Shown: piece after piece, positions 15,076-63,855 of the stretch | How positions within the stretch are numbered: position 1 is the stretch's first letter | Layout: every line of letters starts with the position of its first letter | Sequence record: NC_052654.1 | DNA: 64,000 nucleotides | Strand: one strand, 5' to 3' | Source of the DNA: Escherichia phage vB_EcoM-Ro121c4YLVW | Translations under genes and position numbers: made by a program | Notes under the pieces: model-generated | What the model was told of the DNA's origin: nothing | The model's database searches: none | The model's input: only the letters and a program-made list of their open reading frames with translations

Positions 15076-15810
15076 TTAGGCTCCTGTTGGTTTTAAGGAC
15101 TCGGCACTTGAGTTACCGCTCTGAATGTTACGAACCGTGTGCGTGTGAGTATGGAATCCGATGCCATTACCATCTGTCATCAAACCGTTCTGATCTATTT
15201 TAAGACCATTGATATCTGCCACGCCGCCTTTGAAAGTTAAATTACCACCTTTTAGATCCAAAGTCCCTATGCCATCTGTAATAGTAATACCGGAGGTAGT
15301 AATATCTATTTTCATCCCTTGACTATTCCATATTGAAATATTACCTGTAGGGTCGAAAGAAGCGTACGTGTTTTTGTTATTAGAAATAACTACCTTTTCA
15401 GAATCTACAGCTTCTGTTGAATCTGTTCCTGTAGCTATTTTGGGAATAAAACAAATAGGGTATAATCCACAAGGCTGCATAAAAGTGGATGATGAAGAGG
15501 TTTCTCCACTAGTTTGCAGTGCATTAGAAGGATCTCTTTCAGAAAATATAACAGTTCCTAAATCGCCAGCTTTAATAGGGAATGAGATTCTTCCTGTCCC
15601 ACCCCCATTAACCATAAAAGGAACATCTTCAAAAGTAGGATAATCTATTTCATCTTCACTAGATCGTGTGTTTTTAACAATAGATTCTAAAGTGACAGTT
15701 TTAGCACCATAATTAACGCCAGTCACACGGACTGGCAGGGCTGTATGGACTTCTGCTAATTGTTCTGTCATTAAGCCACGCATTGCTGTGACAAAATTCA
15801 ATGCATCCAT
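15076..15810 (-). CDS. baseplate central spike protein (gpV-like) with C-terminal HxHxH motif
   Basis: 244 aa; Gly-rich C-terminal segment ending GIGFHTHTHTV, resembling metal-binding apex of P2 gpV-type spikes. Confidence 0.45.
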   Translation of the reverse strand: MDALNFVTAMRGLMTEQLAEVHTALPVRVTGVNYGAKTVTLESIVKNTRSSEDEIDYPTFEDVPFMVNGGGTGRISFPIKAGDLGTVIFSERDPSNALQTSGETSSSSTFMQPCGLYPICFIPKIATGTDSTEAVDSEKVVISNNKNTYASFDPTGNISIWNSQGMKIDITTSGITITDGIGTLDLKGGNLTFKGGVADINGLKIDQNGLMTDGNGIGFHTHTHTVRNIQSGNSSAESLKPTGA

Positions 15811-16820
15811 TATTTCTCCTTAGTCATTATTTCAGACACGGATACACATTCCACTTCAGTAACCCACTCTTTACCTTCTTTATCTCCGTTGTGAGAAACA
15901 GAAACTACTTTAAATGGACCATCATAATCTCGGCTTTTTAACCAGATTGTTTTTTCTGGTAATATTGCACCATTCATTTGGCATTTGAATTTAACACCAT
16001 CTGTAGGTTTCTTTGCCTTCTTAGAGGACTTGGTAACTTTTTTAGTAGGTTTTATATCGTTGTGGAATGGTTCTGGACTTCCTATCAGACCAGTTTCAGG
16101 GCTAATATAGGCGCTACGTGCACTAGACATTTGTGAACGAGGAGTGACATAAACAGATCCATCTTGTATTGACACATTGTGATCAATACTTTTACAAATA
16201 TGTTCTAGGTAATGTGAAGTGTTTCCACACATAGCTGTTGCTGAGGATAAGGTTTGATCATTATCTACGTGTATATTACCTTCTGTAGTTCCTAAATCCT
16301 TTACCAAATCTGTCACAACACGTTTGATTTTAGTTCCTTTTGGATAACTGCGGCTTGTTCTTGCTTCTGCAATGTTAATACCGCCATCCAAACAGTGTAA
16401 AGTGGTTTTCCTGTCTACCGAGTCAAAAGTGTCACTAACCCACTGGATAGTTCCTTTGAAGACCATAACCAACTCTTCACCTTCGTATCCTACCGCTAAA
16501 GCAACAGCCAAGTTATTTCGGATACCACGGTTTATATAGTTAACAGTATCATCCGAAAGGTTATAAACTACAATCTCTGCTTGGTTAGGATCTTTGTTAT
16601 TATCTTTCTTAATACTGAAGGTTATTTGATGGTCTTGCAACAAATACAAATTAGAAGAGGATTTTTCTGTTGTTCCTAACTTGGTATCCAAATCTACTGT
16701 AGATTTAAATGCCGAGTTCTTAGTTCTCTTCTGTATTGTGTTTGTGGCAGAACCAATTAATAATTTGTATGCCCTGTTTAAATTAGGGGCAGGAGCTTTT
16801 GTATACTCTCTTTCTGCCAT
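15810..16820 (-). CDS. putative baseplate hub protein
   Basis: 336 aa ORF upstream of spike gene; assignment by position. Confidence 0.4.
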   Translation of the reverse strand: MAEREYTKAPAPNLNRAYKLLIGSATNTIQKRTKNSAFKSTVDLDTKLGTTEKSSSNLYLLQDHQITFSIKKDNNKDPNQAEIVVYNLSDDTVNYINRGIRNNLAVALAVGYEGEELVMVFKGTIQWVSDTFDSVDRKTTLHCLDGGINIAEARTSRSYPKGTKIKRVVTDLVKDLGTTEGNIHVDNDQTLSSATAMCGNTSHYLEHICKSIDHNVSIQDGSVYVTPRSQMSSARSAYISPETGLIGSPEPFHNDIKPTKKVTKSSKKAKKPTDGVKFKCQMNGAILPEKTIWLKSRDYDGPFKVVSVSHNGDKEGKEWVTEVECVSVSEIMTKEK

Positions 16821-35978: not shown

Positions 35979-36008
35979 ATCCTAACATATGAAGGATACG
36001 TTTGTCAA
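35979..36008 (-). promoter_or_regulatory. sigma70-like promoter at head of tRNA cluster
   Basis: minus-sense ATTGACAA, 18 nt, TAGGAT; paralogous to promoter at 35392-35421; about 190 nt leader before first tRNA. Confidence 0.45.
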
Positions 36009-36015
36009 TAGTTAT

Positions 36016-36264
36016 TTAAGCATATTCTGCTACTTCTTCACTATCTTTCTTTTCCAGAAGAGCAACAACCAAAGCTTCTGCGTTAAAAGTGTTAATTTCA
36101 AGATCCATCTCTCGCATCAGAGCCAAGAAATCAATAACTTTAACATCTTTAGTGATTACAATAGAAGTTGTACCATTGTTTTCAGATGTGTATTTTTCTG
36201 GATGGAAAAGAAAAACTGCATTGCCGTTACCATCTTCAAACACGTGTTTTTCTAATAGAGACAT
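36016..36264 (-). CDS. hypothetical small protein
   Basis: internal ATG of track ORF 36016..36330 preceded by AGGAGG. Confidence 0.5.
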   Translation of the reverse strand: MSLLEKHVFEDGNGNAVFLFHPEKYTSENNGTTSIVITKDVKVIDFLALMREMDLEINTFNAEALVVALLEKKDSEEVAEYA

Positions 36265-36272
36265 TGTTCCTC

Positions 36273-36524
36273 CTAATCTGTTAGTTGTTCGTCCTCTACC
36301 AAGTTTGACACGAGAACGTCTGTTATACATTGATGCTGATAAACCCTTTCGGGACTATCATCAAAAGCCAAACCTGTGCAAATAGAACAGAGGTCTGATT
36401 CCTTGATGACTCCATTTTTATCACGTCTGGAGTGGTTTGTCAAATGCCTATTACAAGCACGGCACCTAAAATAAAAACTATTTTGCATATATCCTTCGAA
36501 CCCCAAATGGGGAGTGATCGGCAT
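36273..36524 (-). CDS. small Cys-rich (zinc-finger-like) protein
   Basis: 83 aa with CRACN...CSICTG cysteine pairs; start may be internal ATG. Confidence 0.45.
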   Translation of the reverse strand: MPITPHLGFEGYMQNSFYFRCRACNRHLTNHSRRDKNGVIKESDLCSICTGLAFDDSPERVYQHQCITDVLVSNLVEDEQLTD

Positions 36525-36561
36525 CTCCTCACTTCTAGTTTAGCACGAAGGATATCTTAAG

Positions 36562-36747
36562 TCAACTAGGAATAATTTTATCCTTTTTGGTTTCATAACC
36601 AGTCCAATCTAAATCCTCCCAGCCTTCATCATCGTCTAACACATTGTCATCGTCATAAGATGCAATGTTATAAATAGAACGTGGATTACAAGACATACAA
36701 TCTTTAATAGGTACATGATGCCATTTGCACGGATTCTCGCTAATCAT
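36562..36747 (-). CDS. hypothetical small acidic protein
   Basis: 61 aa ORF, first leftward gene next to control region. Confidence 0.45.
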   Translation of the reverse strand: MISENPCKWHHVPIKDCMSCNPRSIYNIASYDDDNVLDDDEGWEDLDWTGYETKKDKIIPS

Positions 36748-36774
36748 TGCACACCTCCATTCTTGTTAAGATGT

Positions 36775-36975
36775 TCCGTACTGTACTTCATACTGATCTA
36801 TAGATCAAGTATTATTTATAATAATTTATTATTTTATTTTTAATTGATAGAAGTTGATCTGTACGTACCAGTTCTGATACACTGTACCTGTTTGTTAGAT
36901 CTAATAATTATTTATTATTAATATTTAATAATTATTAATCTAGTACGGAGTACAGTACTTGAGTACAGAGTACTA
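36775..36975. promoter_or_regulatory. AT-rich palindromic control region, candidate replication origin / divergent promoter hub
   Basis: inverted repeats GTACTGTAC (36778-36786) and GTACAGTAC (36950-36958) flank AT-rich core; 14 bp palindrome TGATCTATAGATCA; several GATC and GTAC sites. Confidence 0.4.
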
Positions 36976-37227
36976 CATCAACAACCTAAAACCTTAACTC
37001 GCTGCGCTCGTTAATAGATTTCTAGGGTAGCATACTTCGAACACAAAAGTCAAGAGTTTTATTAAAATTATTTTCTGTGTGCAAAAACCTTGCTTAAACA
37101 GGTAGCAATAGTATAGCCTATAACATAAGCTTCATAAGAGGCTCGTAGAGCAAGTTCACTTACTAGGTAAGGTGATTTATCATCTTATATATAAAAAGTG
37201 CGTCAGAGACGCGTTTAGGAGGCTAGA

Positions 37228-37551
37228 ATGAGATTTACAAGACAAGAGGTAGTTGTGCTGGACGAAGCAATGACAATGATCGTCTTTTACTACGAGGATA
37301 TCTTCTGTGCAGCATATCATTTAAATGACATTCAGATCGAATGGCAGCAGATAGCATTTTTGTTGGACAAGAGTACTCATTTGGATGGCTTTGAGTATTT
37401 GGAATGGGATGGTGCAAAGGAAGTTAAAATTGTAGGGTTAAATCACGATCAGATTGTTGACATGCAATGTAAGTTGTGTCATTATCAGTTCTCAAACAAA
37501 GTCAAACTCGAAAGGCAATTGGAGGTGGTTAAAGATGATAGCACTAATTAG
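37228..37551 (+). CDS. hypothetical early protein
   Basis: 107 aa ORF with SD AGGAGG; first rightward gene. Confidence 0.55.
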   Translation: MRFTRQEVVVLDEAMTMIVFYYEDIFCAAYHLNDIQIEWQQIAFLLDKSTHLDGFEYLEWDGAKEVKIVGLNHDQIVDMQCKLCHYQFSNKVKLERQLEVVKDDSTN

Positions 37552-37651
37552 TGAGAATCCAGTCCTGACAACAATTGTTCTGATTTTTGCCATGTGTGTG
37601 GTTCACGATGTTCTGGTAAGTTATTTTGACAACAAAGGAGGTAAGAAATGA
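37535..37651 (+). CDS. small membrane protein
   Basis: internal ATG of track ORF 37454..37651 preceded by GGAGG; hydrophobic 38 aa. Confidence 0.4.
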   Translation: MIALISENPVLTTIVLIFAMCVVHDVLVSYFDNKGGKK

Positions 37652-37842
37652 AAGACGTTATTCAAATGGTATTCCGTGTAACTCTAGATGGTATACACGT
37701 TGTTAAAGGCACACAGAACTACACAGAAGCGAAAGAACACTTCTTAGAGTGGATTGATACACTGAAGACACAAGATGTGTCCTACAGCCGTGTTACGCTT
37801 ACTGGCGACCATACCCCAATCATGGAGTACGTAAAGAAATGA
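37648..37842 (+). CDS. hypothetical early protein
   Basis: 64 aa ORF, ATGA overlap with neighbours. Confidence 0.5.
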   Translation: MKDVIQMVFRVTLDGIHVVKGTQNYTEAKEHFLEWIDTLKTQDVSYSRVTLTGDHTPIMEYVKK

Positions 37843-38078
37843 GCAACTATCCAATTACAGGCGTAACCTATTCTTGTGTAGCAAAAGGTGGTTTATATAC
37901 GGTAGTGGAATTTCCAAAACCTGCCGGAATATCTAAAGTGTTTGATCCTGTGGTTATCTATGAAGATCTTAGAACAGGTCAACGTTACTGGAGATTTGTG
38001 AATGACTTTTTAGATCGTATGGAGGTAGTAAGTGGCGAAAACACCGAAGAAGTTATCAAAGCCAAAGAACGTTACTAA
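37839..38078 (+). CDS. hypothetical early protein
   Basis: 79 aa ORF. Confidence 0.5.
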   Translation: MSNYPITGVTYSCVAKGGLYTVVEFPKPAGISKVFDPVVIYEDLRTGQRYWRFVNDFLDRMEVVSGENTEEVIKAKERY

Positions 38079-56320: not shown

Positions 56321-56647
56321 ATGGGTATTGATATCGAATGGCGTATGTTACAGGGTGCACCATATGATAAATGGAAAGAAATATTTGGAGACGACCCACA
56401 AGTTGAAGACCAGTTCGATGGGGACTTTAATTGGTTTCTCTGCGAAGGTTTGGGCTTGGAAAACATTTCCCCGTGGTACGATGCAGATCCTGAAGATTGT
56501 GTCTTCGGTGTCAAGCTGTGTAGCGGCTGTGGTGCTTGTGCCATAGACCTCACAAGCTTAAATAAAAAAGCGAATGAGATCTATTTTGAACTGCTTAATA
56601 AGTATAATATTGAAACTGAAACATTAGTATCACAAAACGTCTGGTAA
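56321..56647 (+). CDS. hypothetical Cys-containing protein
   Basis: 108 aa ORF with CSGCGAC. Confidence 0.5.
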   Translation: MGIDIEWRMLQGAPYDKWKEIFGDDPQVEDQFDGDFNWFLCEGLGLENISPWYDADPEDCVFGVKLCSGCGACAIDLTSLNKKANEIYFELLNKYNIETETLVSQNVW

Positions 56648-56656
56648 GGAGAACTG

Positions 56657-57649
56657 ATGCGCTATCTGGTAACAGGTGGTCTTGGTTTTATTGGGAGTGC
56701 CGTGGTGCGCTCTCTTTGTCAAGATCCTAATAACGAAGTTTTTGTCGTTGATAAGATGAGCTATGCAGCAGATATTGAGAATGTAGGCGATATCACTCAC
56801 GTTAAACTAAGCATGACAGATTTGGCAAACGAAGCCCAAGTAAAAAGTTTAGTAGTAGAGTGCAATCCCGATTTCATCATTCACTTAGCGGCAGAGAGTC
56901 ATGTGGATAATTCTATCAAGAATCCACGAGTTTTCATCGACTCCAATATTATTGGTACATACAATTTATTGGAAGCTGCAAGGCTCCTCCCAAAGAATAA
57001 ACTGAAGATGTTCGTACACGTCTCCACAGACGAAGTGTACGGCGATATGGCAGACTCTGGCGTTCCCTTTACCGAAGAGACAGCTTATGCCCCTTCAAGC
57101 CCATACAGTGCGTCTAAGGCAGCATCTGACCATCTTGTGAAAGCTTGGCACCGTACCTACGATTTGCCTGTTGTGATAACCAACTGCTCCAATAACTTTG
57201 GACCTTATCAACATCCAGAAAAGCTGATCCCAAAAATCATCACAAGTATTTTGACGAATAAAGAGATTCCGGTGTATGGTAAAGGCGATCAGGTGCGAGA
57301 CTGGCTTTTTGTTGAGGATCATGCGAGAGCTATTCTTCAAGTGGCAACAGGTGGAGAACCAGGCCAAACGTATAACGTTGGAACACGTAATCCCAAAACC
57401 AATATGGAGATCATCTATATGGTTTGTGACTACATGGATGCTGTACATCCAGAAGCAGGAACCTACCCTTCTTCCAACTTGATAACTTTTGTTGAAGATC
57501 GTAAAGGACATGACTTGCGTTATGAAATCAATCCTTCTAAGATAGAGTCTGAACTGGGTTGGAGTGCAAACTCTACATTTGAACAAGATCTCTACTCAAC
57601 GATTGAATGGTACTTAAACAACCCTCAATGGTGGAGTGAGAAGATTTAA
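56657..57649 (+). CDS. rmlB: dTDP-glucose 4,6-dehydratase
   Basis: Rossmann GGLGFIGS, catalytic YSASK; close to E. coli RmlB as recalled. Confidence 0.9.
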
Positions 57650-62927: not shown

Positions 62928-63362
62928 ATGTTACAAGTTCCTGCTAAGTTTGTTGAAGGCGCTATCCACTCTTACCGTCAAACATGTAAGAGGGCAAGAA
63001 ACTGTTTAGATGGTCTGGTGGCAAAAACCTATACTGTTGAAAAGAAGAAACGTTGGTTTGGCAAAGATGTTTACGAAGTTAATATTTTTGGTGAACATAA
63101 ACTAAACCACGATACTCCTGAAAACATGTTAGAAATATTTCTAAGAGATGACAAAATATCTCCTATGGATTACCAACTTTTAAAATTTTATGATTCTTCT
63201 TTGGCTATTGATAAGTTTGTTGAAGATATTCTGTCTAGAAAAACAGATAAAAACACTTATCCTCTAGAGGCTGATCAAATAGGATTATTAAACGAGATTT
63301 CATCCTTTAAAGAGTTGGATAATATTACAAAAGAGGAGATTTTAGATGGCATTAGATTATGA
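62928..63362 (+). CDS. hypothetical protein
   Basis: 144 aa ORF. Confidence 0.5.
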   Translation: MLQVPAKFVEGAIHSYRQTCKRARNCLDGLVAKTYTVEKKKRWFGKDVYEVNIFGEHKLNHDTPENMLEIFLRDDKISPMDYQLLKFYDSSLAIDKFVEDILSRKTDKNTYPLEADQIGLLNEISSFKELDNITKEEILDGIRL

Positions 63363-63855
63363 TCGCCCAACGAGCGATTATTATCCGACACCGCAAAAAG
63401 CAATCAATAGTTTGTTTAGTGTTATAGATTTCAAAAATCTAAAGGAAGAAGGTTGGGTTTTTGCAGAACCTTGCAGAGGTGAAGCTGAAGCGATTTATCG
63501 CCATTTTCCTGAAGGTTCAGAATATTGCGAACTTGAAGAAGGTAAAGATTATTTTAGTCATGAATGGGAAAATCGTCCCGACATTATAATCACAAATCCT
63601 CCATTTAAGTTAGCAATGGAGTTCTTGGAAAAGAGCTTAAAAGAGGCGGATGTTTGTATTTATCTTCTTCGGTTGGGCTTCTTGGAGTCAAAGAAACGAC
63701 GAGAGTTCCATCAAAAGAATCCACCAACAAACCTTATAGTCCTTTCAGAACGGCCTTCGTTTGTTGCAGGTGGAACAGATAAGACAGCATACGCTTGGTA
63801 TGTATACGACCCAAAGAATCGTTTGGGCCTCTCTCAACCATTTTATTTTGTTTAA
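63346..63855 (+). CDS. small DNA N6-adenine methyltransferase (phage Dam-like)
   Basis: 169 aa with catalytic IITNPPF motif. Confidence 0.65.
   Translation: MALDYDRPTSDYYPTPQKAINSLFSVIDFKNLKEEGWVFAEPCRGEAEAIYRHFPEGSEYCELEEGKDYFSHEWENRPDIIITNPPFKLAMEFLEKSLKEADVCIYLLRLGFLESKKRREFHQKNPPTNLIVLSERPSFVAGGTDKTAYAWYVYDPKNRLGLSQPFYFV

Follow-up and report, generated by a model that had tools for sequence, protein, structure and literature searches.

Does the AT-rich, repeat-bearing stretch at positions 36,775 to 36,975 of the 64,000-nucleotide segment analysed here (the window; Escherichia phage vB_EcoM-Ro121c4YLVW, NC_052654.1) mark a replication origin, or is it a hub from which transcription is controlled? 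The initial annotation, made from the letters alone, offered both readings. The stretch lies within a 480-bp non-coding gap (36748-37227), and we compared the homologous gap across six clades of the Stephanstirmvirinae. The genomes comprised an ESCO13-type set (ESCO13, nepoznato, phAPEC8, KKP 3954, dw-ec, anhysbys, EP57 and nieznany), the phages phiWec179, phiWec190, phiWec188 and PsgM04F together with one IMG/VR contig, phi92, BME3 and ALITA (Justusliebigvirus), Klebsiella phage phi1_175008 (Klebsiella phi1) and Citrobacter phage Tr1. On this comparison the gap is probably, at odds that we put near 70%, the main divergent promoter and control region of a lytic myovirus; it is not a demonstrated origin.

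Setting of the gap and its predicted promoters

The 1.2 kb around the feature matches ESCO13 (KX552041.2; Phapecoctavirus, Stephanstirmvirinae) at 100% identity and recurs at 95-100% identity in about 60 close relatives. To the left of the gap, small ORFs form a leftward block, beyond which comes a cluster of ten tRNAs; to the right lies a rightward block that opens with small early-type ORFs and continues with RNA ligase, DNA ligase, exonucleases, ribonucleotide reductase and others. The divergence of genes from this point, already proposed from the reading frames, is borne out, as the minus-strand ORF starts at 36747, the plus-strand ORF at 37228, and both are annotated in the ESCO13 record. 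The small flanking ORFs (61-107 aa) have no Pfam domain match and fall only into PHROG families of unknown function. An Rfam scan of 36500-37400 at E ≤ 1 gave zero matches; the hairpin ahead of the first rightward gene (Table 1) looks like a terminator when read on the minus strand.

The AT-rich core described initially is also present and consists of two tracts, 36810-36849 and 36902-36941, each 97% A+T. In the window, and in the whole genome of about 150 kb, these two rank as the least stable 40-mers, and the segment 36795-36944 is the least stable 150-bp stretch in those ~150 kb (-155.5 kcal/mol vs -166 for the next; mean -193, sd 7.2). All motifs listed in the initial annotation were found as well, at the reported position or at most one base away.

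Table 1. Features in and around the divergent gap (window coordinates; a dot marks features without strand).
Feature	Position	Strand	Remarks
First gene of the leftward block	36562..36747	-	61 aa, function unknown, PHROG 26411; ORF and record annotation
Ribosome-binding site of the 61-aa gene	36753-36759	-	GGAGGTG (reverse complement of these positions)
Imperfect inverted repeat, ~57 bp	36778..36959	.	right arm resembles an inverted copy of P_L and AT tract A without the -35 hexamer
GTACTGTAC	36778-36786
P_L, predicted leftward sigma-70 promoter	36780..36808	-	-35 TTGATC (36808 to 36803), 17-nt spacer, -10 TACAGT (36785 to 36780)
TGATCTATAGATCA	36794-36807		perfect 14-bp palindrome
AT tract A, ~45 bp	36809..36853	.	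between P_L and P_R1; holds a 97% A+T 40-mer
P_R1, predicted rightward promoter	36854..36883	+	-35 TTGATC, 18-nt spacer with GTACGTAC, -10 TACACT
GATC	36856
GTACGTAC	36861-36868
P_R1 transcript start segment, predicted	36884..36901	+	contains CTGTTTGTTAGATCT; TGTTAGATC core common to phi92 and Tr1
AGATCT	36897-36902
AT tract B	36902..36941	.	(TAATTAT)n / 17-bp tandem repeat, 97% A+T; confined to the ESCO13 clade; contributes to the right arm of the inverted repeat
Degenerate heptamer array	36942..36975	.	AGTACGG AGTACA GTACTTG AGTACAG AGTACTA, five GTAC sites; clade-specific
GTACAGTAC	36950-36958
Most conserved non-coding block of the subfamily	36988..37023	.	CTCGCTKCGCTCG ... TTAGGG; first ~30 nt of the predicted P_L2 transcript
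P_L2, predicted leftward promoter	37024..37053	-	-35 TTGACT (37053 to 37048), 18-nt spacer ending TGC (extended -10), -10 TACCCT (37029 to 37024)
P_R2, predicted gene-proximal rightward promoter	37155..37183	+	TTCACT, 17-nt spacer, TATCAT; flagged by promoter scan, 9/12
GC-rich hairpin	37200..37212	+	GCGTC aga GACGC in the 5' leader, directly ahead of the ribosome-binding site
First gene of the rightward (early) block	37228..37551	+	107 aa, function unknown, PHROG 14390

The suggestion of a regulatory hub is upheld by predicted promoters of the sigma-70 type, which occupy syntenic positions in all six clades examined. One architecture is common to all of them, with a leftward P_L at the left edge of the AT tract, a rightward P_R1 at its right edge and 43-57 bp between the two -35 hexamers. 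A hexamer table of ten genomes from the six clades, built with regular expressions composed after inspection of the sequences, contains P_L, P_R1 and P_L2 once each per genome, with conserved hexamers and divergent spacers. In four other clades the promoter scan itself calls syntenic sites that agree with the consensus at 9-11 of 12 positions. The P_L sites recovered by the scan, each a 9/12 match, are TTGACT-17-TAGAGT in phi92, TTGACT-18-TAGAGT in phiWec190, TTGACC-17-TAGTAT in Tr1 and TTGACC-17-TACACT in Klebsiella phi1, while the counterparts of P_R1 read TTGTTA-17-TAGTAT in phi92 and TTGTAA-17-TAGTAT in Tr1. P_R2 likewise has counterparts in Klebsiella phi1 (TTGACA-17-TATCAT, 11/12) and Tr1 (TTGACT-17-TACCAT). 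In ESCO13, P_L, P_R1 and P_L2 reach just 8 of 12 consensus matches, which is under the scan threshold, and the scan flags TTCATA-17-TATTAT at 36787-36815 instead.

P_L2, which is directed into the GTAC array and the AT tracts, reads TTGAC(A/T)-17/18-TGnTACCCT on the minus strand, its hexamers being invariant and its spacers different in all ten genomes. The conserved block at the start of its predicted transcript contains a small hairpin with three compensatory pairs; the RNA fold of that transcript is modest (z = -2.1), and an IMG/VR pattern scan with the block matched one contig.

Substitutions within the ESCO13-type set provide a second line of evidence. Only two touch a hexamer, and both lead toward the consensus: C>T at 36781 in KKP 3954 changes the P_L -10 hexamer TACAGT to TACAAT, and C>A at 36859 in phAPEC8 changes the P_R1 -35 hexamer TTGATC to TTGATA. 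The rest fall in spacers, as do all changes of KKP 3954 in P_R1, so that the natural variants behave as the promoter model predicts. At the second divergence point of the genome stands a plain TTGACA-17-TAGAAT promoter, which indicates that the phage uses host-type promoters. A literature search returned no mapped transcription start sites or transcriptome data for any member of the subfamily; that the predicted promoters fire is an inference.

On the model that these observations suggest, host RNA polymerase carrying sigma-70 would start leftward at P_L, toward the small ORFs, the tRNA cluster and the NAD-salvage genes, and rightward at P_R1, toward the early and nucleotide-metabolism genes. 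The two promoters would stand back to back, with AT tract A as upstream, UP-element-like DNA shared by both, and would be followed further right by the conserved leftward P_L2 and the rightward P_R2. Read in this way, the 14-bp palindrome, together with three of the four GATC sites, would be nothing other than the TTGATC -35 hexamers and spacer of P_L and P_R1: the -35 and spacer of P_L contain the palindrome and two GATC sites, and GTACTGTAC overlaps its -10.

The arrangement has a counterpart in the related large myovirus rV5, which also has four transcription blocks and for which 33 sigma-70-like promoters were described genome-wide, among them the back-to-back pair P010/P011 at a divergence point, host-type TTGAC-N17-TAnnnT promoters placed where both gene orientation and GC skew reverse (Kropinski et al., 2013; PMC3606486). 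rV5 belongs to another subfamily, and the likeness drawn here is one of layout, to which ESCO13 adds a tract of 97% A+T, the GTAC array and an apparent inverted duplication. The feature is most likely a previously unannotated example of an already known kind of element, the divergent early promoter region. For Phapecoctavirus, whose members are used in phage-therapy cocktails, the analysis yields a concrete and testable map of predicted promoters in the control region.

Evidence bearing on a replication origin

The initial annotation had proposed cumulative GC skew as a check on the origin reading, and the minimum of the window does fall here, at ~37.0 kb, where it coincides with the strand switch. 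Across the whole genome there are four transcription blocks, two points of divergence and two of convergence; the sign of the skew equals gene orientation in all four (r = 0.88), and the second divergence point gives a second minimum. Since skew follows transcription throughout, the minimum carries no independent information about an origin, and the authors of the rV5 study similarly concluded for their own phage that skew analysis does not locate the origin (PMC3606486). Coding-strand skew, estimated by eye, amounts to ~0.15, 0.08, 0.16 and 0.14 in the four blocks, values that no simple origin placement fits.

The search for initiator sites was equally unproductive. There is no DnaA box (TTATCCACA) with one mismatch or fewer in 36000-38000, and only two of the 338 two-mismatch sites of the whole window lie in 36600-37300. 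The oriC-type 13-mer GATCTnTTnTTTT has a single two-mismatch match in the region (36823, without GATC) among 59 in the window, GATC-containing candidates in the region having three mismatches. No IHF consensus site occurs in the region, and in place of an iteron array, that is, at least three direct repeats of ~17-22 bp beside or within an initiator gene, we found only two 12-mers and the degenerate heptamers. With a skew that reflects transcription and without DnaA boxes, 13-mers, IHF sites or iterons, the proposal of a replication origin is left with no specific support.

A further argument had rested on the clustering of GATC and on a Dam-like methyltransferase encoded at 63346-63855. Four GATC sites within 110 bp is a chance-level count, as the window has two such clusters where random placement would give 3.2 (observed/expected for GATC, 0.91-1.0), and two of the four sites are lost in phAPEC8 and nieznany. 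The 14-bp palindrome is present and perfect as described, but its occurrence is within chance (seven perfect 14-bp palindromes in the window, 5.2 +/- 2.7 in shuffles) and of 8 close relatives no more than 4 retain it intact. As for the enzyme, the 169-aa ORF is real and encodes a small amino-methyltransferase-like protein that falls into PHROG 799 ('DNA methyltransferase') and bears an NPPF motif at residue 84; depositors name its homologues N6-adenine methyltransferase. Searches of Pfam, NCBIfam and PDB gave no match for it, and a specificity for GATC is unsupported. Sister clades keep the methyltransferase at 80-86% identity whatever their GATC and GTAC content. The combined argument therefore falls, the cluster being neither enriched nor conserved and the enzyme being present in relatives regardless of the motifs. 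Neither the skew minimum nor the GATC count is evidence for an origin at this locus.

By analogy with pac and oriR of P1, which are rich in GATC, the region could also be read as an element under Dam/SeqA control, as a site of packaging or as a terminus of the genome; we regard this as highly improbable. GATC does occur in the P_L spacer of several clades (TAGATC right after the -35), phiWec190 and Tr1 carry five GATC in 150-200 bp, and two database records (nieznany, ALITA) begin or end in the gap. Against these stand the chance-level count and the losses in ESCO13 relatives, the low numbers in phi92 (2) and Klebsiella phi1 (1), and a methyltransferase that lacks a Pfam Dam match. The only mapped terminal repeat in the subfamily (BME3, 342 bp) is situated ~48 kb from the divergent region of BME3, and it has no match in the window. 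We also considered the 148-bp end overlap of the phiWec179 record as a terminus and discarded it, as it maps inside a 336-aa ORF of the window (15810-16820) and is probably an assembly artefact. The resemblance to E. coli oriC and P1 oriR is similarly loose: AT-rich DNA with some GATC is shared, and the 7-bp repeats beside an AT tract faintly recall the GATC heptamers of oriR, but ESCO13 is without DnaA boxes or 13-mer matches, its GATC content is that of chance and its heptamers carry GTAC.

Origins of a different kind are activated by transcription. In the primary origin of T7 and in oriF and oriG of T4, all experimentally mapped, transcription from at least one promoter runs into a short AT-rich element that unwinds, and DnaA boxes and iterons are absent; T7 employs a phage RNA polymerase and T4 MotA-dependent middle promoters. 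By analogy, the gap might double as such an origin, in which transcripts from P_R1 or P_L2 would form an R-loop in easily melted DNA and prime the phage replisome. ESCO13 resembles the T7 and T4 elements in sequence, with predicted promoters aimed into AT-rich DNA, P_R1 into AT tract B and P_L2 into both tracts, and no DnaA boxes or iterons. The proposal gains from the exceptional instability of the DNA, with the two tracts ranking first and second among 40-mers, from P_L2 being the best-conserved non-coding element across the subfamily, and from the fact that no initiator protein was seen adjoining the region in the Pfam and PHROG searches of the flanking ORFs. Phages of the rV5 type, moreover, carry a podovirus-related primase/helicase (PMC3606486). 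However, AT tract B, the transcribed tract, is missing in the sister clades, in which respect ESCO13 differs from T7 and T4; the nieznany and EP57 records have deletions (possible assembly errors) that remove P_R1 or P_L; AT-rich DNA between strong promoters is to be expected of any promoter hub; and the region is devoid of recognisable initiator sites while its skew is fully accounted for by transcription, second minimum included. We consider an additional role of this kind possible but improbable; should it prove real, no earlier origin would have been defined in the subfamily.

A probable inverted duplication and the GTAC cluster

The remaining peculiarities of the locus are its inverted repeats and its GTAC sites. 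The two inverted 9-mers pointed out initially belong to a longer imperfect inverted repeat of ~57 bp with arms at 36778-36834 and ~36903-36959, which is beyond chance (score 40 vs 18.7 +/- 3.3 in shuffled sequence, reached in 0 of 500) and agrees with 'repeat_region' features annotated by other authors in the nepoznato and anhysbys records. Its right arm is formed by AT tract B and the adjoining TACAGTAC and looks like an inverted duplicate of the module made up of P_L and AT tract A, from which the -35 has been lost. In the alignment, AT tract B and the five-GTAC array are missing from every sister clade. Tandem Repeats Finder (TRF) flags only AT tract B, the AGTACAG heptamers not reaching a score of at least 30. 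Slippage of 7-bp units is a plausible source of the repeats. AT tract B and the GTAC repeats to its right would accordingly represent a lineage-specific inverted duplication of the P_L module that was extended by 7-bp slippage. They have no convincing promoter of their own, and their presence is thus explained by history and not by function. The module also varies among close relatives: dw-ec has lost 13 bp of the heptamer array with two GTAC sites, in KKP 3954 four of the five sites of the array carry mutations, and in anhysbys 9 bp are duplicated in tandem immediately to the right of the module. A mobile-element reading of the array was rejected after a BLAST search with 36932-36990 matched the ESCO13 clade only.

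Among the motifs listed initially, the GTAC cluster alone exceeds chance. The window contains 64 GTAC sites where 191 are expected from trinucleotide content, a threefold depletion, and 10 of the 64 are packed into 196 bp (36778-36973); under random placement the probability of any 200-bp stretch with at least five is 0.003. In the near-identical phage B15 (~150-kb genome), with 162 sites and an observed/expected ratio of 0.36, no GTAC cluster is larger than this one. Of the 4-bp palindromes, GTAC is the one most depleted in the ESCO13 lineage, the ratio being 0.34 in ESCO13 and 0.17 in KKP 3954, compared with 0.73 in Justusliebigvirus alia, 0.66 in the phiWec clade and 0.93 in the Tr1 and Klebsiella phi1 loci.

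In KKP 3954 the removal of GTAC is in progress. This phage differs from ESCO13 by 1.5% overall; of 42 comparable sites it has lost 20, 18 of which are still GTAC in B15, and it has gained two. B15, equally divergent from ESCO13, has lost 2 of 42. Outside the intergenic gap GTAC is the most often destroyed of all 4-mers in KKP 3954 (39% of sites vs a mean of 6.9%), and within the gap 7 of 10 sites are destroyed, chiefly by G>A or C>T. Across eight genomes, substitutions are 9.4-fold enriched at GTAC positions (p = 2.6e-6), an excess that stems wholly from KKP 3954; when it is left out, variable positions number 2/40 at GTAC and 15/440 elsewhere. Given that KKP 3954 is viable with 7 of its 10 sites gone, the GTAC sites are dispensable and there is no sign of purifying selection on them.

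These figures weigh on the possibility that the GTAC repeats are operators for a phage or host DNA-binding regulator of the divergent promoters, with GTAC avoided elsewhere to limit off-target binding. Candidate sites would be GTACTGTAC at the P_L -10, GTACGTAC in the P_R1 spacer and a palindrome with 22-nt arms, TAGTAC-N3-GTAC ... GTAC-N3-GTACTA, around 36958. Ten sites in so depleted a genome could mean that something binds there, all the more as the sites overlap core promoter elements, as the region holds both the inverted repeat with 22-nt arms (I3) and two 12-mers AGTACrGAGTAC 20 bp apart, and as the lineage with the cluster is also the one in which depletion is strongest. Yet the sites are being destroyed in KKP 3954 and have in part been deleted in dw-ec, they otherwise evolve like their surroundings, and in sister clades the promoters are the same but GTAC is absent. 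We identified no DNA-binding gene specific to the clade, and the predicted DNA hairpins or cruciforms of three GTAC/GATC palindromic stretches are not more stable than shuffled sequence (z = -0.97, -0.79 and +1.08). The purge in KKP 3954 strikes dispersed and clustered sites alike, which fits restriction better than a binding code. An operator function is therefore unlikely.

We attach similarly little weight to a combination of the preceding ideas, in which AT tract B and the GTAC heptamer palindrome, flanked by P_R1 and P_L2, would constitute a transcription-primed origin or unwinding element with the GTAC repeats as binding or methylation-sensing sites. Such a role, if true, would explain why the repeats persist in a genome that purges GTAC.

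The GTAC cluster is best read as the product of small duplications whose erosion is incomplete, the sites having piled up through duplication within a genome otherwise purged of GTAC. The depletion itself is most likely due to restriction avoidance. Avoidance of restriction sites in phage genomes has been described (Rusinov et al., 2018, as cited in PMC8594841), and this phage group was reported to be exceptionally sensitive to restriction-modification systems (PMC8594841). Avoidance of GTAC in particular is documented in Helicobacter and Campylobacter, where PabI-family restriction enzymes are common (PMC10273834). ESCO13 resembles such systems in that GTAC is its most depleted 4-bp palindrome and one lineage is still removing sites directionally; it differs in that the present analysis identified no GTAC-specific restriction system of the E. 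coli hosts and in that the cluster opposes the genome-wide trend. The methyltransferase was considered as the driver of the depletion and rejected, since clades without depletion retain it at the same 80-86% identity.

The continuing loss of GTAC, the 4-bp palindrome avoided most, from a single lineage (47% of sites at 1.5% divergence) is of some interest for studies of the arms race between phage and host, and the case cautions that motif clusters in genomes of this kind need not be functional sites. CTAG is absent from the sampled loci of one sister clade. The only other local excess of GTAC in the window lies at ~56.5-57.6 kb, in a relatively GC-rich stretch where relatives annotate dTDP-sugar genes; if these genes are young, this would fit with GTAC persisting in younger sequence.

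Loss of GTAC sites and depletion of other palindromes

KKP 3954 (OR067838.1, 76000-122000), a close ESCO13-type relative, was compared with window 16709-62791. At 1.5% divergence, 20 of the 42 ESCO13 GTAC sites are gone in KKP 3954, while only two were gained; B15, another relative of this type, still reads GTAC at 18 of the 20 lost sites. GTAC is the 4-mer most often destroyed in KKP 3954, where its observed/expected ratio is 0.17. The purge of GTAC in this phage is directional and genome-wide.

A different palindrome is missing from the sampled loci of one sister clade: across roughly 25 kb of sampled loci of phiWec179, phiWec188, phiWec190, PsgM04F and an IMG/VR contig, there are no CTAG sites where about 50 would be expected, and the corresponding observed/expected ratio in ESCO13 is about 0.58. 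The 4-bp palindrome being purged seems to differ between lineages of the subfamily.

A second, looser cluster of seven GTAC sites lies at window 56476-57610, in and around a 330-aa ORF (56657-57649). It falls within one of the most GC-rich stretches of the window (41-44% G+C), in a part of the genome where relatives annotate dTDP-sugar (rml-type) genes. This DNA may have been acquired horizontally and not yet been reached by the GTAC purge.

Conserved and variable elements of the probable divergent promoter region

Among the non-coding blocks of the subfamily, the best conserved one reads, from its sequence, as a predicted leftward extended -10 promoter, P_L2. Its transcript would carry, close to the predicted 5' end, a small hairpin with three compensatory pairs among five clades; the equivalent block of phi92 and Klebsiella phi1 takes the form of a terminator-like hairpin on the plus strand. 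The GC-rich hairpin on the rightward side of the gap is kept in the phiWec clade, and its minus-strand reading scores as an intrinsic terminator. Between P_L2 and the predicted rightward promoter P_R2, the phiWec clade carries an additional 70-aa ORF (phiWec190 locus 2659-2871; equivalent to window ~37060-37150), in an interval that in ESCO13 is non-coding and only about 100 bp long.

Sequence features in the window
Feature	Window position	Details
Non-coding block with the highest conservation in the subfamily	36988-37053	CTCGCTKCGCTCG ... TTAGGGTAGCATA ... GTCAA
GC-rich hairpin	37200-37212	GCGTC-aga-GACGC; followed directly by the ribosome-binding site belonging to the first rightward gene
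Putative DNA methyltransferase	63346-63855	169 aa; NPPF at residue 84

The records of two close relatives lack parts of the gap. The nieznany record (NC_052659.1), whose first base falls inside the gap, is without window 36821-36882, which removes the predicted rightward promoter P_R1, and EP57 is without ~36755-36793, which removes a ribosome-binding site and the -10 element of the predicted leftward promoter P_L. Either the deletions are genuine and this AT-rich repeat region is unstable, or the records contain assembly errors.

Methyltransferase, termini and record labels

The 169-aa protein, a putative minimal orphan methyltransferase, gave no match in sequence searches of Pfam, NCBIfam and PDB; its 542 phage homologues are spread over Stephanstirmvirinae, Vequintavirinae and many other groups.

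The record of phiWec179 has a 148-bp overlap between its ends. Since this overlap maps inside a 336-aa ORF (15810-16820; overlap at window ~16118-16265), the ends of the record seem to have arisen during assembly and not to represent a genuine terminal repeat. A candidate place for the Phapecoctavirus termini is a 1.5-kb stretch outside the window (B15 reverse complement ~130623-132139) containing no ORF of at least 80 aa, because it resembles the large non-coding region in which the 342-bp terminal repeat of BME3 is mapped.

The B15 record itself (MG065650.1, 'Campylobacter phage B15', UNVERIFIED) carries a Campylobacter jejuni host label. The phage is a Phapecoctavirus that matches the window at 98.6% identity along most of its length and at 100% in the 1.2 kb surrounding the probable promoter region. 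The label is probably wrong. Several further 'Campylobacter phage' records also belong to Stephanstirmvirinae.
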